Positions 1,421-39,640 of a stretch of 64,000 nucleotides of DNA are shown in pieces (the first letter of the stretch is position 1; every line of letters starts with the position of its first letter). Source of the stretch: an uncultured delta proteobacterium. GTDB taxonomy: Bacteria > Myxococcota_A > Polyangia > Fen-1088. Below the pieces are notes generated by a model. That model saw only the letters and a list, made by a program, of their open reading frames with translations. It was not told the origin of the DNA and ran no database searches. The position numbers were made by a program, and so were the translations under genes. The stretch lies in contig CAVYGB010000008.1 of assembly GCA_963767925.1 (NCBI GenBank), positions 1,024,001-1,088,000 on the forward strand. Direction: 5' to 3'.

Positions 1421-2290
1421 TTGTCGCCCTACACGCCCCCCGCTACGCAGTCCGACGAGATCGCGGCGCCGCTGACCGATCTCGGGCGGCTCTGCATCCA
1501 CACCGTCACCACCAAACCCTGGGCCCTCGAGCCAGCCTCCGAGGCCTTCGCCGCCGCCGGAGTCAAGGGCATCACCGTGTGGCGGGACGCCCTCGGCGAT
1601 CGGGATCCGGTCGCGGCCGGCGCCCGCCTGCGCGGCCTGGGCCTCGAGATCGTCTCCCTCTGTCGGGGCGGCTTCTTCCCCCACCGGGAGTCGAGCGGCC
1701 GCCAGAAGGCCCTCGACGACAACCGCAAGGCCATCGACGAGGCCGCCGCCCTCGGCGCCCCCATCGTCGTGCTGGTGTGCGGGGCGGTCCCCGGGCAGCC
1801 CCTGGCCACCTCCCGCGACCAGATCCGGGCGGGCATCGAGGCGGTGCTCCCGCACGCCGAGGCCAGCGGTGTCCGCCTGGCCATCGAGCCGCTCCATCCG
1901 ATGTACGCCGATGACCGCTCGGCCATCAGCACGCTCGGTCAGGCCAACGACCTGGCCGAGGCCATCGGCTCCCCCCAGGTCGGGGTGGCGGTCGACGTCT
2001 ACCACCTGTGGTGGGATCCGGCCCTGGAGGCCGAGATCGCCCGCTGTGGCCGCAACGGCCACCTGTTCGCCTTCCACGTTTGCGACTGGAAGACCCCCAC
2101 CGAGGATCTGCTCCTGGATCGCGGCCTGCCCGGCGAGGGCTGCATCGACCTGCGCCGCATCCGGCGCTGGGCCGAGGCAGCCGGGTTTCGCGGATTCAAC
2201 GAGGTGGAGGTCTTTTCCCGGAAGCACTGGGCGAGCGACCAGGGAGAGTTGCTCAAGAAGATCACGCGCTCATATCTGGAGCACGTCTAG
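1421..2290 (+). CDS. Sugar phosphate isomerase/epimerase (xylose isomerase-like TIM barrel)
   Basis: LAIEPLHP, DVYH, FHVCD, GEGCID and EVE metal-binding motifs. Start uncertain. Confidence 0.88.
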   Translation: MSPYTPPATQSDEIAAPLTDLGRLCIHTVTTKPWALEPASEAFAAAGVKGITVWRDALGDRDPVAAGARLRGLGLEIVSLCRGGFFPHRESSGRQKALDDNRKAIDEAAALGAPIVVLVCGAVPGQPLATSRDQIRAGIEAVLPHAEASGVRLAIEPLHPMYADDRSAISTLGQANDLAEAIGSPQVGVAVDVYHLWWDPALEAEIARCGRNGHLFAFHVCDWKTPTEDLLLDRGLPGEGCIDLRRIRRWAEAAGFRGFNEVEVFSRKHWASDQGELLKKITRSYLEHV

Positions 2291-2299
2291 GACGGTGAC

Positions 2300-3445
2300 A
2301 TGAAGACACACAAGATCGGGATCATCATGAACGGCGTGACCGGCCGCATGGGCACGAACCAGCACCTGCTGCGTTCGATCGCGGCCATCATCCGCCAGGG
2401 GGGTGTGGCGGTGGGCTCCGACGAGACCATCCTGCCCGAGCCGATTCTCGTCGGCCGCAACGTGGACAAGCTGCGCAAGCTGTGCGAGGCGGCCGGCGTC
2501 GAGAAGATGACCACCGACCTCGACAGTGTCCTCGGCGACCCCAAGTACCAGATCTACTTCGACGCCCAGACCACCGGGCGGCGCGCCGAGGGCGTGCGCA
2601 AGGCGGTGGCGGCCAAGAAACACGTCTACTGCGAGAAGCCCACGGCGGTCGACACGAAGACCGCCCTCGAGCTTTACCAGCTCGCGACGAAGGCGGGCGT
2701 CAAGAACGGGGTCGTGCAAGACAAGCTCTGGCTGCCCGGTCTGGTGAAGCTGCGCCGGCTCAAGGAGAAGGGCTTCTTCGGGAAGATCCTCTCGGTCCAG
2801 GGCTCCTTCGGCTACTGGGTGTTCGAGGGCGACACCGTGCCGGCCCAGCGCCCCTCCTGGAACTACCGCAAAGAGGACGACGGCGGGATCATCGTGGACA
2901 TGCTCTGCCACTGGCGCTACGTGCTCGACAACCTGTTCGGCAGCGTCAAGGCGGTGAGCTGCCTGGGGGCCACCCACATCCCCGAGCGGGTCGACGAGCA
3001 GGGCAAGCGCTACAGGTGCACGGCCGACGACGCGGCCTACGCCACCTTCGAGCTCGAGGGCGGCGTCATCGCCCAGTTCAACTCCTCCTGGACCACCCGG
3101 GTGCGGCGCGACGACCTGCTGACCTTGCAGGTCGATGGCAGCCTCGGCTCGGCGGTGGCGGGGCTGCGCGAGTGCTGGGTCCAGCCTTACGGGGCCACCC
3201 CGCGCCCGGTCTGGAACCCCGACGTGCCCCAGCCGATCGACTTCATGAACGGCTGGGCCAAGCTGCCCGACCAGGAGACCTACGACAACGCCTTCAAGGT
3301 GCAGTGGGAGATGTTCCTGCGCCACGTGGTCAAGGACGAGCCCTTCCGCTTCAGCCTCAAGGAAGGGGCCAGGGGCGTTCAGCTCGCCGAGCTGGGGCTC
3401 GAGAGCTGGTCCAAGCGAGCCTGGGTCTCGGTCCCCGAGCTCTGA
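2300..3445 (+). CDS. Gfo/Idh/MocA family NAD(P)-dependent oxidoreductase
   Basis: N-terminal Rossmann GVTGRMG, HVYCEKP and GGIIVDMLCH motifs; 9 bp after the epimerase. Confidence 0.92.
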   Translation: MKTHKIGIIMNGVTGRMGTNQHLLRSIAAIIRQGGVAVGSDETILPEPILVGRNVDKLRKLCEAAGVEKMTTDLDSVLGDPKYQIYFDAQTTGRRAEGVRKAVAAKKHVYCEKPTAVDTKTALELYQLATKAGVKNGVVQDKLWLPGLVKLRRLKEKGFFGKILSVQGSFGYWVFEGDTVPAQRPSWNYRKEDDGGIIVDMLCHWRYVLDNLFGSVKAVSCLGATHIPERVDEQGKRYRCTADDAAYATFELEGGVIAQFNSSWTTRVRRDDLLTLQVDGSLGSAVAGLRECWVQPYGATPRPVWNPDVPQPIDFMNGWAKLPDQETYDNAFKVQWEMFLRHVVKDEPFRFSLKEGARGVQLAELGLESWSKRAWVSVPEL

Positions 3446-28855: not shown

Positions 28856-30744
28856 TTACGCCGGCGGGGGTGTGACAGTGGCAGCGCGTGTGGGGGCCCC
28901 GTTTTCCTTGACCACCCGCCCGAACAGGGTGGCCAGCTCCGCCTCGGCGAGCGTCTCCTTCTCCAGCAGGGTGCGCGCGCCCTCCTCGAGCAGGGAGCGG
29001 TTGCGGTCGAGGATGGCCCGCGCCCAGACGAAGGACTGATCGACGATGCGCCGGACAGCCCCGTCGATCTCCCGGGCGGTCTCGTCGCTGTAGTCCCGGC
29101 GGGACAGCGACCCCAGCCCCGGACCCAACATCCCGATCGGCTCGTTGTCGTAGGTCACGTGGCCGAGCTCCGGGACCATCGCGTAGCGGGTCACCATGCT
29201 GCGGGCGATCTCGGTGGCCTTGTTGCAGGTCGTCGGCCGCGCCGGTCGACAGGTGGCCGAAGATGAGGTGCTCGGCCGCGCGGCCGCCGAGCAGCACGGC
29301 CATCTTCTTCTCGAGCTCCTCGCGGATCATGAGGTAGCGGTCCTCGGTCGGGCGCTGGATGGTGTAGCCGAGCGCGCCGACTCCCGCGCGGGATGATCGA
29401 GACCTTGTGCACCGGATCGGTCCCGGGCAGGGCGGCCGCGACCAGCGCGTGGCCCATCTCGTGGTGCGCCACCACCCGGCGCTCCTGCGGGGAGAGCAGG
29501 CGGTTCCGCTTCTCCAGGCCGGCCACGATGCGCTCGATCGCGGCGGTGAAGTCGGCGAGGATGACCTCGCTGGCGCCCCGCCGGGTGGCGACCAGCGCCG
29601 CCTCGTTGACCAGGTTGGCCAGATCGGCGCCGGTGAAGCCGGGGGTGAGCCCGGCGACGTCGTCGAGGTTCACGGCCTCGCCCATCGTGATCTTCTTGCT
29701 GTGGACCCGCAGGATCTCGGCCCGCGCCCCGCTTGTCCGGCCGGTCGACCAGGACCTGCCGATCGAAGCGGCCGGCCCGCAGCAGGGCCGGATCGAGGAT
29801 CTCGGGCCGGTTGGTGGCGGCGATGATGACGATGCCGCTCGAGGCGTCGAAGCCGTCCAGCTCGACGAGGAGCTGGTTGAGCGTCTGCTCCTTCTCGTCG
29901 TGGCCGCCCATGGCGCCGCCGGCGTGGCGCGCCCGCCCGAGGGCGTCGAGCTCGTCGATGAAGATGATGCACGGCGCCTTCTGCCGCGCCTGCTCGAACA
30001 GGTCGCGCACCCGGGCCGCGCCCACGCCCACGAACATCTCCACGAACTCCGAGCCGCTGATGGAGAAGAAGGGCACGTCGGCCTCGCCCGGCCACCGCCC
30101 GGGCCAGCAGGGTCTTGCCGGTTCCGGGCGGGCCGACCAGCAGCACGCCCTTGGGCATGCGGGCGCCGAGCCGGCCGTAGCTGCTTCGGATCCTTGAGGA
30201 AGGAGACCACCTCCTCCAGCTCGTCCTTGGCCTCGTCGACGCCCGGCCACGTCCTTGAAGGTGACCTTGATGTCCGTCTCGACGTAGACCTTGGCCTTGC
30301 TCTTGCCGATGGCCATCAGCCCGCCGCCCGGTCCGATCCGGCCGGCCATCCGGCGCATGATGAACATCCAGACGGCAAAGAACAGCACCAGGGGCACGAC
30401 CCAGGAGAGGATCGCGGCCACGAAGGTGCTTCTCGCGCTGGGCGGAGAACTTGACCTCGTGCTGGCTCGAGCTCGTTGGCCAGGTCGGGCTCGACCCGGT
30501 TGGTGACGAACTGCTTCTTGCCGTCGATCGGCTCCTTGAGGGTGCCCCGGATCTCGCCCGAGGAGACGATGACCTCCTCGATCCTGTTTTCCTTCAGGAG
30601 CCGCTCGAACTCGCTGTAGGGCAGGGGGGTAACCCCCTGCACCCGGGACCAGACGTCCTGGAGCAGGAGGATCGCGAGCAGCGCGACGATGATGTAGCTG
30701 ATACTGAAGCGCGTACGATCGGGGCCGGGGCTGGCTGCAGGCAT
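28856..30744 (-). pseudogene. ftsH: ATP-dependent zinc metalloprotease FtsH, interrupted by eight +1 frameshifts (probably sequencing errors)
   Basis: Walker A GPPGTGKT, Walker [35 protein letters not shown] and LGGRAAE are spread across frames. Removing 8 nt gives 1881 nt = 627 codons. Confidence 0.9.
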
Positions 30745-30812: not shown

Positions 30813-31787
30813 TTATTCCCGGGGCGAGACCGCGTCTAGCCTCGCGCGGAGGGCGGCGCCGGCCGGGGTGTCGCGCAGGCTGGCCAGTCGTCGCAGGTAG
30901 TGGGCCAGCGCCCAGAGGTCCGGATCTTTGATGGCGCCCTTCCAGGTGGGCATGGCGGCTCCGTCGATGCCAGCCGCCACGGTGCGGAAGATGGCCCGCG
31001 GGGACGACCCGTTCTTTAGGTGGTGGAACAGGAAGTCGGTGGGCAAGATGCTCAGCTTCGTCTCGCCCGCCTTGTAGTCGCTCTCCTTGAGTATGGGGCG
31101 GGTCGGGCGTTCGCGCTCCTGGGCCGGTTTACCGAGCACCGCCTGCGACAGCGCGGCCAGCTCCTTCGCGGGCAGGTAGCTGGGGTGGCAGGCGATGCAC
31201 CCGGCCAGCACCGTCCGGGGCTGCTGGGTGGCGGGGTCCATCTCCACCCCGGACAGGTGGTAGATCTTCTCCCCCAGCTTGAACGCCTCCTCCTCCCGGC
31301 CCACCCAGGGGTCGGGGACGTCGGGCTGGACCAGCTCACCGGGGGTCTCGTTCTTCCAGCGGGGCGAGAAGGTCTTGATGTACGCGACGACGGCTACCCG
31401 GGCCGGTTCGCTGAGATCCCAGGGCAACATCGAGGTCCCGGCCAGGCCGTTGCGCAGGAGGGCCAGCAGGTCGGCGTCGTTGGGGAGCTCCCCCGCGGCC
31501 ACCCCCGGGAACTTGAACTTGCCCGCGGTGAAGTCCCGGGGCGGGGGCCGCATGCCGGCGGCGGCGGGCCCGTTGCCATCTCCCTTTTCCCCGTGGCAGG
31601 CGTAGCAGAATTGCAGGTAGACCTCGTGGCCCTGGTTCAGCAGGTCGGAGGGGATCACCTGGCCGCCCAGCTTCTGCGCCTCGCGGAACTTCGGCTGCTC
31701 CCGGCAGCCGGTGGCGGTCAGCCCCAGCCCGCCGGTGAGCGCGACAAGGCCCGTGAACGCGACGAGCTGAGCAGGCTTTCCCTTCAT
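30813..31787 (-). CDS. Di-heme c-type cytochrome, probably a lipoprotein; likely electron donor to the oxidase
   Basis: CYACH and CIACH; PRDFT.GKFKF; GTSMLPW and GAAMPTW Met-ligand regions; lipobox-like ATGC. Confidence 0.88.
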   Translation of the reverse strand: MKGKPAQLVAFTGLVALTGGLGLTATGCREQPKFREAQKLGGQVIPSDLLNQGHEVYLQFCYACHGEKGDGNGPAAAGMRPPPRDFTAGKFKFPGVAAGELPNDADLLALLRNGLAGTSMLPWDLSEPARVAVVAYIKTFSPRWKNETPGELVQPDVPDPWVGREEEAFKLGEKIYHLSGVEMDPATQQPRTVLAGCIACHPSYLPAKELAALSQAVLGKPAQERERPTRPILKESDYKAGETKLSILPTDFLFHHLKNGSSPRAIFRTVAAGIDGAAMPTWKGAIKDPDLWALAHYLRRLASLRDTPAGAALRARLDAVSPRE

Positions 31788-31792
31788 CGCGC

Positions 31793-32362
31793 TCACACCA
31801 GGTAGACGGCCACGAAGACCAGCCCCCACAAGATGCCCACCATGTGCAGGTAGAGGGTCCACAGGCGCAGGGGGATGGGGCGCACGCCGCCGCCCAGGGC
31901 GCCGGCCGCGAGGAGGCTGCCCAGCCCCACCAGGCCCACCAGGACGTGCAGCGCGTGAAAGCCGGTCAGCCCGAAGAACACGGATCCGTAGGGGCCGGAG
32001 TCCAGGCGCAGCCCCCGCTGCCAGAGATCGCGCCAGACGAAGGCCTGCAGGCCCAGGAAGCCCGCGCTGGCCGCCCAGGCCAGGACCAGCCCGCCCGGGC
32101 CCACCCGGCGACCCTGCCGGGACTGCTGGCGCGCCCGCTCCAGCCGGTAGCTCGCCAGGGCCATCAGGCCGGTGGCCAGCGCCGGCAACCCCAGGGGCAA
32201 GGTGGGCAGGTCGGCGGGGGGCCAGGCGGTCGAACGGACCCGCACCAGCCCATAAGAGAAGAAGAGGGCCGCAAACAGCATCGCCCAGGAGGCCAGGAAC
32301 AGGGTCATGCCCAGCAGGGCCGTCGTCTCCTGGTGCTGGCCGTCGGCACGGGCGGTGGCCAT
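31793..32362 (-). CDS. Heme-copper oxidase subunit III (second copy)
   Basis: LGMTLFLASWAMLF, YGSVFFGLTGFHALHV and YLHMV motifs; TGATG coupling to subunit I. Confidence 0.85.
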   Translation of the reverse strand: MATARADGQHQETTALLGMTLFLASWAMLFAALFFSYGLVRVRSTAWPPADLPTLPLGLPALATGLMALASYRLERARQQSRQGRRVGPGGLVLAWAASAGFLGLQAFVWRDLWQRGLRLDSGPYGSVFFGLTGFHALHVLVGLVGLGSLLAAGALGGGVRPIPLRLWTLYLHMVGILWGLVFVAVYLV

Positions 32363-34125
32363 CAGGTTCCTCCGGCGGCCGCCGGCCGCCCCTCGGGCAG
32401 GTCCTCGGTCTGGGCGATCCAGTCGCGGCCCAGGGTCGCCTTCACGGCGGGGTTGGACAGCTCGTGGGGTCCCCGCACCACGGTGGGGATGGGATCGAAG
32501 TTGTGGACCGGGGGCGGGGAGGGCACCGTCCACTCGAGGGTGCCGACCTTCCAGGGGTTGGCCTCGGCGTTGGGCTTGCGAAAGACGTTGGCGAAGAAGT
32601 TCACGACGAACAGGAGCTGGCTCGCCCCCAGGGCGAAGGCGAAGTAGCTCGTCAGGCGGTTGAGCGGGGCCAGGTGTTTGAGGAAGCCGTACTGGTGGGG
32701 ATCCCAGAGCCGGCGGGGCTGCCCGGCGTACCCCGTGAAGAGCTGCCCGCAAAACAGCAGGGTGATGAACACGAGCGAGAGCCAGAAGTGGACCTTGCCC
32801 AGCCGCTCGTCGAGCATCCGGCCGAACATCTTGGGGAACCAGAAGTGGATGGCGGCGAAGATGGCGAGGAAGGTGGCCGCCGCCATGATGAGGTGGAAGT
32901 GCCCCACCACGAACATGGTGTCGTGCAGGTAGAGGTCGGTGGAGATAGTCGCCAGGTATAGGCCGGTCAGCCCCCCGATGGCGAACACCCAGACCACCCC
33001 CAGCGTGAACAACATCGGCGTCGAGGTGCGCATCGACCCCTTCCAGATGGTGTGCAGCCAGTTCAGGAACAGCAGCTCGGCGGGGGCGCTGATGATGAGG
33101 GTCAAGGTCATGAACGCCTTGCCCAGCATGGGGTTCATCCCGGTCGTGAACATGTGGTGCCCGTACACGACCGCCGAGAGCACGGTGATGAGGACCATGG
33201 CTCCCACCGAGCCCTTGTACCAGTAGGCGGGCTTGCGGGAGAAGAAGGCCACCAGGTCGCCGGTGAACCCCCAGGCCGGCAGGATCAGGATGTAGACCTC
33301 CGGGTGCCCGAAGATCCAGAACAGGTGCTGGAACAGGATGGGGTCGCCGCCGCCCCGCACCGAGGCGGCGCCGGCGATGAAGAACTGGGTCCCCAGCTCG
33401 CGATCGCTGAGCAGCAGCAAGGTCGCCGCCCCGAGCACGGGCACGAACAGGATGTTGAGGATCGACGTGAGCCACAGCCCCCAGACGGTCAGCGGCATCC
33501 GCAGGTAGGTCATCCCTGGCGCCCGGAAGCGGATGACCGTCACGACGTAGTTGATGGCTCCCATCACGGTGGCCACACCGGTGAAGAACAGCGCCGCCAC
33601 GACCAGGGTCTGCCCCATCCCGGGGGTGCCCACCCGGGTGGCGAGCGGCGGGTAGGTGGTCCAGCCGGCGGCGGCCGAGCCGAGCTGCACGAGGAAGGAG
33701 GCCACCACCAGGCAGAGCGACAGGGCGAAGGTCCAGAACGAGAGCATGTTGAGCCGGGGGAAGGCCATGTCCCGGGCCCCGATCATGAGGGGGATGGTGA
33801 AGTTGCCGAAGGCCCCGATCAGCAGCGGCGTCACGGCGAAGAAGATCATCACCAGGCCGTGCATCGTGAAGATGGCGTTGTAGGCCGCCGGGGAGATGAC
33901 CCCGCCCGATCGACTCAGCAGGAGGTCGCCCACCAGGGGGACCTTCTGGCCGGGATAGGCCCACTGCCAGCGGATGAGCATCGCCAGCAGGCCCCCGAAC
34001 AGCAGGAAGAGCAGCCCCGACCAGAGGAACTGCTTGGCGATGACCTTGTGGTCGGTGGAAAAAACGTAGCGCCGGACGAACGAGGTCGGCGGCGGGTGGA
34101 TGGGCTGCAGCTCGTCGCCGGTCAT
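32362..34125 (-). CDS. ctaD: Heme-copper oxidase subunit I, A1-type core with altered K-channel
   Basis: STDHK, TMHG, DMAFPRLN, GWTTYPPL, GHPEVY, GHHMF, HDT..VVGHFH and GQPRR motifs. Confidence 0.95.
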   Translation of the reverse strand: MTGDELQPIHPPPTSFVRRYVFSTDHKVIAKQFLWSGLLFLLFGGLLAMLIRWQWAYPGQKVPLVGDLLLSRSGGVISPAAYNAIFTMHGLVMIFFAVTPLLIGAFGNFTIPLMIGARDMAFPRLNMLSFWTFALSLCLVVASFLVQLGSAAAGWTTYPPLATRVGTPGMGQTLVVAALFFTGVATVMGAINYVVTVIRFRAPGMTYLRMPLTVWGLWLTSILNILFVPVLGAATLLLLSDRELGTQFFIAGAASVRGGGDPILFQHLFWIFGHPEVYILILPAWGFTGDLVAFFSRKPAYWYKGSVGAMVLITVLSAVVYGHHMFTTGMNPMLGKAFMTLTLIISAPAELLFLNWLHTIWKGSMRTSTPMLFTLGVVWVFAIGGLTGLYLATISTDLYLHDTMFVVGHFHLIMAAATFLAIFAAIHFWFPKMFGRMLDERLGKVHFWLSLVFITLLFCGQLFTGYAGQPRRLWDPHQYGFLKHLAPLNRLTSYFAFALGASQLLFVVNFFANVFRKPNAEANPWKVGTLEWTVPSPPPVHNFDPIPTVVRGPHELSNPAVKATLGRDWIAQTEDLPEGRPAAAGGT

Positions 34126-34967
34126 GGTGTGGGGTGCCCCTCGCGATCGTGGTTGGCGTGGCTCTCGGAATGGTCCTCTCCGTGTTGCTCGGCGTGGGCG
34201 CCGTGGCTCCCCTTCCAGTTCCAGCCCCACTGGGCGCCCTTGTCGTTGGGGTCGAAGCTCTCGCTCGAGAGGGCCGAGGCCTCGGCGGCCCAGGCGGCGT
34301 AGGCCTCGGCGCTCAGCACGACGAGCCGACCACGCATCTTGTAGTGGTTGACCCCGCAGTGCTGGGCGCAGGCGATGTCGAAGGCGCCGGTCTCCTTGGC
34401 CTGGAACCAGAGGCGGTTGATCATGCCCGGCACGGCATCCTGCTTGACGCGGAAGTTGGGCAACGAGAAGCTGTGCAGGACGTCGGTGGCGGCGAGCTGC
34501 AACAAGATGGGGGTGCCCACCGGCACCCGGATGTCGTTCATGCTGACGATGTCGTCGCGGCTGTTGAACCGACCGTCCGGGCCGGGGTAGCGGGCGTCCC
34601 AGGCCCACTGGCGGGCGTTGATCTCGATGCGCACGGCCCGGGGATCGGCCTCCACCGCGTCGAAGTTCCAGAAGGCGGCGTCGAGGTCGCGCAGGCCGTT
34701 GACGAAGAGGTTCCCGTCCACCACCACGAAGATCAGCAGCGAGAGCCCCAGGGCCTTGACCGTCTGCTTGCGGGCGTTGCCCTCGTCGTATTCGGCCCGG
34801 TGCCGGGGGCCGTGGAAGAAGGCCGCCCACAGGATCCAGACCAGCGTGGCGCCGAACATGATGAGCACGAACACGGTCGTCGACTTCAGCAGCCAGTCGA
34901 CCCGCCACCCGTCGACCGAGGCGTCGTGGGGCAACCCCCACCAGCCGGTCGAGGCCAGGGCGGTCAT
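34122..34967 (-). CDS. ctaC: Cytochrome c oxidase subunit II (CuA)
   Basis: Two TM helices; QWAW, DVLHSF, KQDAVPG and CAQHCGVNHYKM motifs; His-rich tail. Confidence 0.93.
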   Translation of the reverse strand: MTALASTGWWGLPHDASVDGWRVDWLLKSTTVFVLIMFGATLVWILWAAFFHGPRHRAEYDEGNARKQTVKALGLSLLIFVVVDGNLFVNGLRDLDAAFWNFDAVEADPRAVRIEINARQWAWDARYPGPDGRFNSRDDIVSMNDIRVPVGTPILLQLAATDVLHSFSLPNFRVKQDAVPGMINRLWFQAKETGAFDIACAQHCGVNHYKMRGRLVVLSAEAYAAWAAEASALSSESFDPNDKGAQWGWNWKGSHGAHAEQHGEDHSESHANHDREGHPTP

Positions 34968-35167
34968 CGACCGCGCTCCAGCTTGCGCACCACCTTGAAG
35001 GCCACCGCCGCCACCAGGTAAGGCACCGCGACGAGGGCGCCCACGAGCGCCAGCACGCCGTTGCCCGGCCCCTCCCGGGCGGCGCAGGCCGGGCAGGCCA
35101 GCGCGGCGCCCGGAGTCAGGCAAATCGCCAGAGCGGCGAGGGCGGCCAGGGCCCGCAGGAGGGTCAT
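34964..35167 (-). CDS. Small membrane protein with CxxC, within the oxidase operon
   Basis: Signal-like segment, ACPAC, then one TM; ATGA overlaps on both sides. Confidence 0.75.
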   Translation of the reverse strand: MTLLRALAALAALAICLTPGAALACPACAAREGPGNGVLALVGALVAVPYLVAAVAFKVVRKLERGR

Positions 35168-35484
35168 GGCCCCGCCCTCCAGGCCGCCTCGGCGATGAGC
35201 ACCCCCGCGAAGAGGGCGGGCAGCAAGAACGGGATCACGACCGTGAGCTTGAGACCCCGGGTCTCGGCAGACAGGTGCATGAACTGCATCAGCACGAGCC
35301 CCGCCTTGGCCAGGGCCATCAGCACCAGGGCGGCCACCAGGAGCCCCTGGCCGATCCCCGGGATGTACACCACCCCGATCTCCAGGGCGGTGAGCAGGGT
35401 GAGCAGGCCGAACACCTGGAGATAGCGGCGGCGCGGGCTTCCGGTCGGGCCGTGGCCGTGGTCGTGGGTCTGGCTGTGGATCAT
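35164..35484 (-). CDS. Cytochrome c oxidase subunit IV family protein
   Basis: Y..VF.LL..LT.LE and KA.LV...FMHL motifs; ATGA-coupled. Confidence 0.85.
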   Translation of the reverse strand: MIHSQTHDHGHGPTGSPRRRYLQVFGLLTLLTALEIGVVYIPGIGQGLLVAALVLMALAKAGLVLMQFMHLSAETRGLKLTVVIPFLLPALFAGVLIAEAAWRAGP

Positions 35485-36149
35485 CGGCCGGCCCCCGGGG
35501 GCGGGCTGGGGATGAGGTACACGAAGGTGAAGACGAGGATCCAGACCAGGTCGACGAAGTGCCAGAACAGGCCGACGCTCTCGATGGCGTCGGCGCGGGC
35601 CTCGACCGAGGGGCTGCGCAGCACCCGCGCCAGCATGACCCCCAGCAGGACGACGCCGGTGAAGACGTGGGCCCCGTGAAAGCTGGTGATGGCATAGAAG
35701 GTTGTGGCCCGGTGCGAATGCCCGAGCTGCAGCCCGCTGCCCGCGAGCCCACCCCCCACGATCCCGAAGTATTCGTGGTACTGCCCGACGAGGAAGAGCA
35801 GCCCACCCAGCATGGTGAGGGCCAGGAACCGGGCGCTGGCGCCCCGATTGCCCTCCCGGGCGGCGGCCACTGCCAGGACCATCGTCACGCTCGAGCAGAT
35901 CAGCAGGAAGGTCAGCCCGGCGGTGAAGTTGATCCCCAGGGGGGGCTCGCCGGGGGGCCACCAGCGGACGGAGGCTGCGCGCAGCACGCCATAGGCGATC
36001 AGCAGCCCCGAAAAGGAGAACGCGTCGGAGATGAGGAACATCCACATCCCCAGCTTGAGCGCCGAGGCGCGGCCGACGAATCGCTCGGGAGGCCACTTCA
36101 CAGCGGCGGTCGGAGCAGGGGAGGTCACGACGTCGCGCTGCCATAGCAT
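35481..36149 (-). CDS. Heme-copper oxidase subunit III (first copy)
   Basis: KLGMWMFLISD, LICSSVTM, TSFHGAHV and GLFWHFVDLVWI motifs; start uncertain. Confidence 0.9.
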   Translation of the reverse strand: MLWQRDVVTSPAPTAAVKWPPERFVGRASALKLGMWMFLISDAFSFSGLLIAYGVLRAASVRWWPPGEPPLGINFTAGLTFLLICSSVTMVLAVAAAREGNRGASARFLALTMLGGLLFLVGQYHEYFGIVGGGLAGSGLQLGHSHRATTFYAITSFHGAHVFTGVVLLGVMLARVLRSPSVEARADAIESVGLFWHFVDLVWILVFTFVYLIPSPPPGAGR

Positions 36150-37621: not shown

Positions 37622-38299
37622 ATGTCGGCGTCGCTTCCGCGGGAAAACCAGCCCGTCCAGACGGCACGCCGGCGGCGCTGGTCCTGGCGCTTCGCCGGTA
37701 GTGCGCTCTTCTGGGGCGCGATCGTGGCGATCGGTCTGATCGTCCCGATCGCCACCCGGGTGTGGCGATCCGCGCCGCCGCCGCTGCCGGTGCTGGGCAC
37801 CTTGCCGGCGTTCAGCCTCGTCGACCAGGACGGCCGCACCACCGGCTCGGCCGACCTGCGCGGCTACGTCTGGGTGGCGAGCTTCCTCTTTACCCGCTGC
37901 CCGACCATCTGTCCCGCGCTGATGACCACCCTCGGCCGCGTGCAGCACCGGGCGCGCGGCATCGAACACGGCTTCCGGCTGGTCAGCTTCAGCGTCGATC
38001 CCCAGCACGACACGCCCGAGCGCCTGGCGGCCTACGCCCGGCAGCACCGGGCCAGCCCGCGCATGTGGAGGTTTCTCACCGGTCCCTTCGCCAGCGTGCA
38101 AAAGACGGTGGTCGACGGGCTGAAGATCGCCATGGGCGAGGTCGAGGGCCAGCAGGACTTCGCCAGCATCATGCACGGGACCCACTTCGTCCTGGTCGAC
38201 CAGCAGGGACGCATCCGCGGCTACTACGACTCGACCGGCGCCGACGTCGTGGACCGCCTGCTCATCGACGCCTCCTTGCTCATCAACCGCGGCGACTGA
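37622..38299 (+). CDS. SCO family copper chaperone
   Basis: FTRCPTICP, SVDP..DTPE and HGTHFVLVD..G.IRGYY motifs. Confidence 0.92.
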   Translation: MSASLPRENQPVQTARRRRWSWRFAGSALFWGAIVAIGLIVPIATRVWRSAPPPLPVLGTLPAFSLVDQDGRTTGSADLRGYVWVASFLFTRCPTICPALMTTLGRVQHRARGIEHGFRLVSFSVDPQHDTPERLAAYARQHRASPRMWRFLTGPFASVQKTVVDGLKIAMGEVEGQQDFASIMHGTHFVLVDQQGRIRGYYDSTGADVVDRLLIDASLLINRGD

Positions 38300-38310
38300 G
38301 GAGGAGTCGG

Positions 38311-39640
38311 ATGGCCGAAGACCTGCAAGCCATGACCCGGGCCCGGTCGGTACGAGGCAAGCGCTTCGGCCGCTACCTCCTGCAGGAGCACCTGGCCTCG
38401 GGAGGCATGGCCGAGATCTTCCTGGCCCGCCTGCCCGGAGAGGGCGGCTTCGCCAAGGACCTGGTGCTCAAGATCCTGCAACAGCGCTACGCCGAGAGCC
38501 CGCAGGTCGTGCAGATGTTCATCGAGGAGGCGCGGCTGGGCGCGGAGCTCCGCCACCCCAACGTCGTCGACATCTACGAGAGCGGGGAGGAGAACGGGCT
38601 CCGCTTCATCGCCATGGAGTACATCGAGGGGCGCACGTTGACCGATTCTCGTGACCCGCGCCTTCGAGGTCTCGCAGCCGCTCCCCATCTCGTTCGCCGC
38701 CCACATCCTGGGGCAAGTCGCCGAGGGCCTAGCCTACCTCCAGGAAGGCCTACCGGGGCGGCCATACGCCCCCGGCCCGTCGGGGATCGTCCACCGCGAC
38801 ATCTCTCCGCCCAACATCCTCATCAGCTTCGCGGGCCACGCCAAGATAATCGATTTCGGCATCGCCCGTGCAGGCACCTCGGTCACCGTCGAGACGGGGG
38901 CACGGCCGGGCAAGTTGTCCTATATGTCTCCGGAGCAGGCGCAAGGGTTCCCCCTCGACGGGCGGTCCGACATCTTCTCCCTGGGAACCATCCTCTACGA
39001 GGTGACGCTGGGCCGACGCCTGTGGCGAGGGACCCCCGAGAGCGTGCTCCGCCGGATCGTTCACGAGGACCCCGAGCCGCCGACCTTCGTCAACCGGGCC
39101 TATCCTCCGACGCTCGAGCGGATCGTGCTGCGGGCCCTGGCCAAGCGTCCGGCCGATCGCTACGGCTCCGCCGGGGAGATGGCCCGGGACCTCGATCGCT
39201 TCCTCGGCGAAAGCGGTGAGCGGGTGGCTGATCGACACATCGCGCAGTTCATCCAGGGGCTCTACGTGCCCACCGCGCGCGTGAACGACGGCGGCAGCCA
39301 GCGGGCCCGCGACTTCCGCGACGAGGACGTCGCCCCCGATGAATACGATCAGCCGCTCGACTTCGACGGGCTTCGACCCCCGCCCGGCGTGGCGCACGCC
39401 CTTCGCGATTCGAACGTCTTCGACCTGGCGGCCCGGGCAGTGTCTGCGCCGCGGCAGGCGAGCGGAGTCCCCTGGGCCACGCCGCCTATCGGCGCCGCGG
39501 CGACGAGCCCCGAGCCGCTGACTCGTCTGTCCCTCGCGTCGGAGGAGCCGAGCTCCCGGGGGCGCCTGGCGGTGGGCATTCTGCTCATTTTGACGGCGCT
39601 CGTCCTCAGCGGCCTGTTTTTCGTCCTGAAAGGACCATGA
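38311..39640 (+). pseudogene. Ser/Thr protein kinase with one +1 frameshift near 38647 (likely sequencing error)
   Basis: GGMAEIF...AMEYIEG in one frame; HRDISPPN/DFG/YMSPE in the next. Removing 1 nt gives 443 codons; C-terminal TM. Confidence 0.85.

Follow-up and report, generated by a model that had tools for sequence, protein, structure and literature searches.

A haem-copper oxidase lineage of Myxococcota and other phyla without the K-pathway lysine and with a different conserved set of polar residues

The oxidase locus

A gene for subunit I of a haem-copper oxidase, coxI, lies at positions 32362–34125 (−) of the window, the 64,000-nucleotide stretch of DNA from an uncultured delta proteobacterium that was analysed here. 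Translation and its Pfam COX1 match place the 587-residue product, CoxI, in the A family; it has the D-channel Glu and lacks the K-pathway Lys. This Lys is a textbook essential residue of A-type oxidases, and whether it acts as proton carrier, charge-compensating switch or both is debated. The gene belongs to an oxidase operon of seven tightly packed minus-strand genes, with overlaps of 1–4 nt at most junctions. In order, these encode a COX3-like subunit, a COX4_pro subunit, a 67-residue open reading frame (ORF), CoxII, CoxI, a second COX3-like subunit and a dihaem cytochrome c, and the coxII stop overlaps the coxI start by 4 nt. We report that the Lys is missing from the whole clade to which this oxidase belongs, and that the clade conserves a different set of polar residues near the former K-pathway.

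CoxI retains the catalytic core and lacks the canonical K-channel

The coxI reading frame comprises 587 uninterrupted codons with no internal stop. The match to Pfam COX1 had an E-value of 2.8e-130. The best PDB matches in phmmer searches were aa3-type subunits I of plants, mycobacteria, Paracoccus and Rhodobacter (E 1e-118 to 1e-111), and the nearest PDB and representative matches were A-family throughout. An AlphaFold2 model of CoxI was built from a 70-sequence alignment and reached a predicted local distance difference test score (pLDDT) of 92.9 and a predicted template-modelling (TM) score of 0.93. Its top Foldseek match was subunit I of Rhodobacter sphaeroides aa3 (2gsm_A; TM 0.83/0.90, root-mean-square deviation 2.6 Å). 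Residues are numbered below as in R. sphaeroides unless marked as window residues. We take this numbering to equal the window number plus 10 over the helix VI–VIII stretch, consistent at window H274, H323 and L352, and the residue numbers used for Paracoccus denitrificans and for NO reductases (NORs) are likewise assumed.

The initial annotation had described the six His ligands, GHPEVY with its Tyr and the D-channel residues D (RDMAFP), N (FGN), N (RLN) and N (GAIN) as retained, and all are present in the translation. The ligands H89, H274, H323, H324, H409 and H411 (window numbers) were invariant in the 70-sequence alignment and in all 260 clade sequences pooled as described below. The helix VI motif GHPEVY occupies window residues 273–278, and its Tyr was found in 260/260; that it is cross-linked would follow from the motif only. 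The D-channel residues D119, N108, N126 and N192, ending in E276 (window numbers), were each present in 260/260, with T or S at the S201 position. In R. sphaeroides terms, E286, D132, N121, N139, N207, Y288 and R481/R482 were thus retained by every clade sequence.

Helix VIII of CoxI reads FMTLTLIISAPAELLFLNW. The codons gcc gag ctg ctg at 33081–33070 (−) encode window A349-E350-L351-L352 (33070..33081), the equivalents of R. sphaeroides T359, G360, I361 and K362. The proposed gapless alignment, and with it T359A, G360E and K362L, held in phmmer comparisons with PDB chains, which were ungapped from GHPEVY onward. Window 'tliisapaellflnw' is paired with 'tmiiavptgikifsw' of the PDB chain, so that A-E-L-L faces T-G-I-K. 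The two further changes described by the initial annotation were also present. The S299 equivalent is Gly (WGFTGD), a minority state among 121 close sequences (S 50, T 37, G 24, C 5), and WAHH has become YGHH, which together with GHPEVY occurs in 121/121 of them. In place of the canonical K-channel residues K362, T359 and S299 the window protein therefore has L352, A349 and G289.

CoxI likewise differs from the other families of the superfamily. It has a D-channel and carries its Tyr in helix VI, at odds with membership of the B or C family. The traits of cNOR and qNOR (no cross-link Tyr, a Glu ligand to FeB, no CuA and no channels) were not seen, as the Tyr, CuA and D-channel are present.

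A clade without the lysine in several phyla

Three samples of related sequences were assembled. The close set held the query and its best 120 database matches, all at least 71% identical (121 sequences). A scan of species-representative genomes gave 22 loci with the same gene (L001–L021 and L054), all in metagenome-assembled genomes (MAGs) and labelled Myxococcota or Deltaproteobacteria, apart from one each from Bacteriovoracaceae, Planctomycetia and Omnitrophota. A further search for homologues, which started from the Bacteriovoracaceae protein, added 120 more members; these read P-S-[G/A]-[I/V]-F...N-W. The pooled clade set of 260 comprised the 121, the 120 and 19 of the loci, with some duplicates between sets. 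The remaining 58 loci of the genome scan were canonical enzymes of 41–47% identity, mostly betaproteobacterial.

Lys was found at position 362 in 0/260 sequences, the residue being always L or F, and in none of the 22 loci. In the close set P-A-E-x-L was conserved in 115/121; of the other six, four have M at the Glu position, one has Q and one has I, and none had Lys. These counts answer the question whether close homologues retain PTGxK in the negative, and they bear out the view that the window gene belongs to a real, conserved and divergent subfamily rather than reflecting an error.

For phylogenetic analysis a wider sample came from running phmmer exhaustively against 1.84 billion representatives at 50% identity. 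A FastTree tree contained 127 sequences (the query, 116 of the 150 nearest representatives and 10 close matches), and an IQ-TREE quick tree contained 50 rows, including Lys-bearing outgroups. Neither was a full search, and the rooting was set by outgroup choice. The Lys-free clade was monophyletic in both, with support of 100 for 20 rows (FastTree) and 100 for 43 rows (IQ-TREE quick). Planctomycetia, Omnitrophota and Bacteriovoracaceae sequences with G, A or S at position 360 formed the deepest branches of the 43-row clade. The lineage of the window oxidase is large, mostly uncultured and spread over Myxococcota, Bdellovibrionota, Omnitrophota and Planctomycetota. No cultured carrier appeared among 10 sequence clusters queried, the only name returned being that of a 'Bdellovibrionota bacterium' MAG. 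In several public records clade members go under the name 'cbb3-type cytochrome c oxidase subunit I', seemingly a generic, domain-derived label that gives the wrong family.

Residues lost and conserved around the K-pathway

Besides K362, the clade lacks the other canonical K-channel elements to differing degrees. Position 359 is Ser in the Bdellovibrionota branch and Ala in the subclade with E360. The column of the subunit II entry Glu (E101(II)) held E in 54/54 canonical loci and in 0/21 clade rows, with Q in the window, in an alignment that is weak at this point.

The clade conserves a different polar set instead, namely D300, K/R314, S/T316, S327, Y331, S356 and N365. D300, S327, N365 and S/T316 were present in 260/260, S356 and W295 in 259/260, Y331 in 258/260 and K/R314 in 255/260. 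At positions 300, 327, 365, 316, 356, 295, 331 and 314 a set of 73 Lys-bearing representatives had mostly H/E/T, G, S/N, M, A, F, W and L, respectively. The polar residues typical of the clade are rare or absent in this set. The Ser at 356, one turn above the T359 position, is window S346 (codon 33088..33090, −; R. sphaeroides A356), and the representatives had A in 89% and S in 1%. The invariant Asp near the N-side end of helix VI is window D290 (33256..33258, −; R. sphaeroides H300), at a position that is mixed in the Lys-bearing set (E 26%, H 26%, T 21%). Window K304 (33214..33216, −; R. sphaeroides L314) supplies the basic residue where helix VII starts on the N side.

The K-channel had initially been described as dismantled. 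The loss of K362, T359 and the subunit II Glu agrees with that wording, but 're-lined' fits better, given that a new polar set is conserved. Replacement of K362 by a nearby Lys had also been raised. K/R314 is indeed a conserved basic residue, but its place in the model, where K304 is the second residue of helix VII (303–316) at the cytoplasmic surface, would suit a role at the entrance more than one as a substitute in mid-channel.

E360 and its partner at position 368

E360 was found in 127/260 clade sequences and in 13 of the 22 loci, and was confined to a Myxococcota-dominated subclade; the wider Lys-free clade has G, A, S, T or V at this position. Within the 20-row FastTree group, the 11 rows with E360 formed a subclade with support of 99. 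Position 368 is His in 119 and Arg in the other 8 of the 127 sequences with E360, and is one or the other in 3/133 of those without it. This companion is window H358 (R. sphaeroides A368), whose codon at 33052..33054 (−) was computed from the start at 34125. Column 368 had the highest mutual information with E360 (0.94). Other candidate covariation partners were rejected, since their high-scoring columns only track phylogeny, and subclade members without Glu still carry the residue of the E group there.

In eight sequences of the subclade the Glu has been replaced, giving M360 with M368 (4), Q360 with Y368 (2), I360 with H368 (1) and V360 with R368 (1). The IQ-TREE quick tree requires 6 changes of the E360 label, and at least 5 of these fall on branches with strong support. 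E360 and H/R368 therefore look like a coupled and dispensable unit at the level of sequence, as the Glu never occurs without its partner, shares the highest mutual information with it and has been replaced repeatedly. Being absent from the rest of the clade and lost repeatedly, E360 is not an essential substitute for the Lys.

In the model, helix VIII spans window residues 332–360, so that its cytoplasmic end is about ten residues away from E350 and close to H358. By helix periodicity T352, S356, E360, L364 and H368 should form an i+4 ridge rotated by about 60–180 degrees from the T359/K362 face.

The other genes of the operon

The first COX3-like subunit (35481..36149, −; 222 residues; Pfam COX3, E 1.8e-19) keeps its upstream position in related loci. 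It is followed by the prokaryotic oxidase subunit IV (35164..35484, −; Pfam COX4_pro), which scored 41.1 bits against NCBIfam caa3_sub_IV (cut-off 37.25). The 67-residue ORF between cox4 and coxII (34964..35167, −) has a signal-like N-terminus, a CPAC motif and a single hydrophobic stretch. It had no Pfam or NCBIfam match, and tblastn located it at the same position in 5/22 related loci (L002, L003, L004, L005 and L012).

CoxII (34122..34967, −; Pfam COX2) is a CuA-bearing subunit II that lacks both a fused cytochrome c and the entry Glu of the K-channel. Its CuA site reads H-x34-C-x3-C-x3-H-x2-M (residues 165–211). The second transmembrane helix has an Asp, D84, in its outer third (VVVDGNL), which is present in 21/21 clade rows (loci L001–L020); the column held Asp in 0/54 canonical rows, mostly Pro. 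After the cupredoxin domain CoxII ends in a His-rich acidic tail (34122–34210, −), with about 9 His in the final 30 residues. The tail is seemingly unconserved, as tblastn matches in related loci mostly end near residue 252.

The second, shorter COX3-like gene directly follows coxI (31793..32362, −; 189 residues; Pfam COX3, E 2.9e-11) and occupies the same position in 18/22 related loci. The final gene of the operon encodes the dihaem c-type cytochrome (30813..31787, −), with two stretches matching Pfam Cytochrome_CBB3, a Cytochrom_C match and two CxxCH motifs, CYACH and CIACH. It was found at the same position in 14/22 related loci and is likely the electron entry of the operon enzyme. The gene order was complete from the first COX3-like gene to cytochrome c in L001, L003, L004 and L006–L008, and most other loci had the core of coxII, coxI and the short COX3-like gene. 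In a Planctomycetia relative (L019, 5986–8238, +) a single 750-residue ORF joins the Lys-free CoxI to a COX3 domain.

A gene for an SCO1/SenC copper chaperone is divergent to the operon (37622..38299, +; Pfam SCO1-SenC, E 2.8e-26), and an SCO1 homologue lies within 6 kb in 10/22 related loci. Haem-synthesis genes were found near the oxidase in two of the eight related loci whose flanks were scanned. In the Bacteriovoracaceae locus (L017, 2691–5906, +) genes for DUF420, the haem A synthase CtaA and a UbiA/CtaB-type prenyltransferase directly precede coxII, and in L004 a UbiA/CtaB-like gene lies at 1778–2836 (+). A DUF420 gene is also present in L016 (7648–8064, −).

An Nramp transporter gene is likewise divergently transcribed beside the operon. 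The window has about 70% G+C and includes Ser/Thr kinases and nuoABC, in keeping with Myxococcota. One Ser/Thr kinase (37762–39640, +) appears divided between two frames; ORF 38651–39640 begins at position 100 of the Pkinase profile, and the overlapping ORF 37762–39219 has an N-lobe-like stretch by eye, with no Pfam match at 1e-5. Directly downstream of the operon, the FtsH gene (28856–30744, −) is split over four overlapping ORFs in different frames. These carry FtsH_ext, AAA, AAA_lid_3 with the start of Peptidase_M41, and the rest of Peptidase_M41, which implies at least three frameshifts. The split may reflect either assembly indel errors or a pseudogene.

Function and proton delivery

CoxI is probably a working, proton-pumping cytochrome c:O2 oxidoreductase of the A family ('A1' by its D-channel Glu), in which the protons of the reductive phase would arrive through a re-lined, Lys-free K-pathway. 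We infer O2 as the substrate, as well as the proton route and the role of E360 and H368. Reduction of O2 is suggested by the active-site ligands, the cross-link Tyr motif, E286, the D-channel, CuA and SCO1, together with the haem O/A synthesis genes of two related loci. The superfamily comparison of Murali et al. 2024 (PMC11214002), in the passages that treat these features, describes the Tyr cofactor as required for O2 reduction and NORs as lacking both the Tyr and conserved channels, which further argues for an O2-reducing cytochrome c oxidase in the window.

Electrons would pass from the dihaem cytochrome c of the operon to CuA, and O2 would be reduced at haem a3, CuB and the Tyr. The intact D-channel and E286 would carry the pumped and oxidative-phase protons. 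The reductive-phase protons, normally delivered by way of K362, T359 and E101(II), are predicted to take a route through polar residues and water in this part of the protein. It would start from the candidate entrance residues D300 and K/R314 on the cytoplasmic side and continue by way of the candidates N365, S/T316 and S327, while S356 and Y331 would lie close to Y288. Such a route, comparable to the one that serves B- and C-family oxidases, is favoured because seven polar positions near the former K-pathway are 98–100% conserved and the canonical ones are gone. The lineage presumably lost the K-pathway Lys long ago. In the Myxococcota subclade S359 would then have become Ala, and the Glu360–His/Arg368 pair would have been added on helix VIII, in register (i+4) with S356 and T352.

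Several observations weigh against this assignment. CoxI scored 577.1 bits against the NCBIfam CtaD_CoxA equivalog (TIGR02891), under the cut-off of 670.75, and is for this reason regarded as a divergent member. Substitutions of K362 in laboratory enzymes nearly abolish turnover, so a functional replacement of the residue has to be assumed in the clade. The conserved polar residues may serve packing and not proton transfer. By simple helix geometry E360 should lie about 100 degrees from the T359/K362 face. Independent contrasts of E360 and H/R368 gave 5 pairs, about 3.8 in the same direction and none opposite (median p 0.125), which are too few for significance. A search of the published literature found no biochemical study of the lysine-free A1 clade or its enzymes.

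The main rival explanation, which we consider rather unlikely, is that the K-pathway is simply gone. The enzyme would then still reduce O2, all protons would pass through the D-channel and the polar residues of the clade would be structural only. The purely hydrophobic L or F at position 362 in 260/260 would fit this, as would Ala at 359 in the subclade of the window, the lost subunit II Glu, the perfectly conserved D-channel and a dispensable E360 lost at least 5 times. Packing alone is nevertheless hard to credit for seven positions that, unlike the canonical ones, stay polar in 98–100% of sequences across phyla. Every known O2-reducing family also keeps a K-type channel according to the channel descriptions in Murali et al. 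(PMC11214002).

A change of substrate is far less probable. The enzyme would in that case be an NO reductase or an H2O2-using peroxidase, with the helix VIII Glu acting like the glutamates of NORs. NORs do have a conserved Glu in helix VIII, and K362 mutants of model oxidases still react with H2O2, both of which count in favour of a switch. Also in favour, A-family oxidases have weak NO reductase activity, as described in PMC11214002. Against it, the cross-link Tyr motif, the three CuB His, CuA, SCO1, the D-channel and E286 have all been kept, and NORs are without the Tyr and the proton channels, as set out in the parts of PMC11214002 on these enzymes. Half of the clade does not have the Glu, which can also be replaced by Met. 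The cNOR Glu, by the numbering that we assume, would align about five residues before position 360. With the O2-reductase signature kept and no NOR feature present, the initial suggestion of NO or H2O2 as another substrate found no support.

Sequencing error or gene decay has a negligible probability as the origin of the substitutions. The neighbouring FtsH gene, split over four frames, does indicate that the assembly or genome contains frame-breaking changes. The coxI gene is full-length and in frame, however, and the same substitutions recur in 115/121 close homologues, with Lys in 0/260; recurrence in many independent assemblies led us to discard an error or a pseudogene.

The re-lined, Lys-free pathway thus remains the favoured reading, and the idea of rewired proton delivery survives in part. 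It agrees with the loss of K362, T359 and the subunit II Glu. The Glu singled out as the rewired element did not prove to be the substitute for the Lys, being absent from the wider Lys-free clade and replaced in eight sequences of the subclade. The E360–H/R368 pair may be a lineage-specific extra relay or a polar clamp. A more specific scheme, in which T352, S356, E360, water and H/R368 of the Myxococcota enzymes form a carboxylate proton ladder on a neighbouring face of helix VIII and replace K362 and T359, is doubtful. If it were true, a natural A-type oxidase with a full D-channel would feed its reductive phase by a Glu/His relay instead of a Lys. Joint loss of E360 and H368 (E to M with H to M, 4 sequences) would then mark a fallback to the older, clade-wide Ser/Asn/Asp route.

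The clade offers a ready-made natural experiment. It is environmentally abundant, keeps the D-channel, E286, the Tyr and CuA, and has L or F at the Lys position across at least four phyla. D300, S356, S327, N365 and K/R314 form a short, testable list of residues for a Lys-free route, and the E360–H/R368 pair, present in some lineages and absent from others, is a further test case. Annotation of these proteins calls for caution, as the NCBI equivalog model misses them and several records are named 'cbb3-type'.

Comparison with known oxidases and other losses of K362

The window enzyme shares with canonical A1 aa3 oxidases (R. sphaeroides and P. denitrificans; PDB 2gsm and 1ar1) the fold, about 39% identity, the six His, GHPEVY, the D-channel, R481/R482 and CuA. 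It differs from them in lacking K362, T359 and subunit II E101, in the changes W331 to Y, A356 to S, H300 to D and G327 to S, and in scoring below the CtaD cut-off. It also has two COX3-like subunits, COX4_pro and a separate dihaem cytochrome c.

The K-type channel of ba3 and cbb3 oxidases is composed of Ser, Thr, Tyr and Asn with an acidic entrance residue. These B- and C-family enzymes likewise reduce O2 with a Lys-free K-type channel, as described in the sections of PMC11214002 on them. Unlike them, the window enzyme keeps the D-channel and E286 and falls phylogenetically inside the A family. The cNOR and qNOR enzymes belong to the same superfamily; in the corresponding account of PMC11214002 they lack the cross-link Tyr, CuA and conserved channels and have a Glu ligand to FeB, unlike the window enzyme.

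Loss of the Lys is not restricted to this clade. K362 had been called near-invariant in the A family, a statement that does not hold, as 54/127 rows of the FastTree tree lack Lys, in a sample biased toward the neighbourhood of the query. Strongly supported branches of that tree force at least 8 changes of the Lys label. The Acidithiobacillus rus-operon oxidase is regarded as transferring electrons to O2 when Fe(II) is oxidized. This aa3 enzyme and other A-family oxidases with a 'modified K-channel' also have a hydrophobic residue at K354/K362 (K to I; PMC8239418). They differ from the window enzyme as independent losses in unrelated subclades, being of A2 type, keeping T351 and having no D300/S356/N365 set.

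Degli Esposti et al. 2021 classified the K-channel variants of about 90 bacterial COX1 proteins in Table_3.xlsx (PMC8239418), many of them A-family and without Lys. In that table the A1 enzymes of Halobacteriovorax and Bacteriovorax stolpii are labelled 'KC-channel' and 'hybrid'; their pattern is Y S F S N D, and the COX2 Glu position is occupied by I or A. Among the entries of Data_Sheet_2.pdf is an A1 subclade 'Oligoflexia - Bacteriovorax and other taxa', with 'no, KC' for the K-channel. The only myxobacterial row of Table_3.xlsx is a Lys-bearing A2 enzyme of Nannocystis, and position 360 is not tabulated. This paper was the only relevant one found in a search for literature on Lys-free A-family enzymes of Planctomycetes or Myxococcota and on the biochemistry of the Bacteriovorax oxidase.

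The 'Oligoflexia' enzymes belong to the same wider clade, the Bacteriovoracaceae locus L017 lying inside the Lys-free clade with support of 100. Compared by tabulated pattern, they share a hydrophobic residue for K, S357 to N, D after S291 and a non-acidic COX2 Glu position. The pattern is Y/G/L/A/N/D with COX2 Q in the window, Y/S,T,G/L,F/S,A,T/N/D in the wider clade and Y/S/hydrophobic/S/N/D in 'Oligoflexia'. The subclade of the window differs from the latter in having A and not S at T359, L and not F at K362, W at G312 and the E360–H/R368 pair. The lysine-free A1 clade is thus already catalogued from sequence for Oligoflexia; its Myxococcota radiation, the clade-invariant residue set and the coupled E360–H/R368 pair were not found in the literature searched.

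Further Lys-free lineages were seen, two of which are given here. One is a Q362 clade with WVHH...P-[ST]-G-[IV]-Q in proteins of about 845 residues (P0207, P0213, P0234, P0235, P0243, P0254, P0258, P0259 and P0261). The other has WMHH and P-F-[D/E/G] in helix VIII (P0195, P0198, P0209, P0220, P0236 and P0268). Four A-family-like representatives (P0143, P0269, P0260 and P0250) carry the altered motifs WGQH, WGHK, GQPGLH and THPALY, with a CuB His or the Tyr missing, and may not be O2 reductases.

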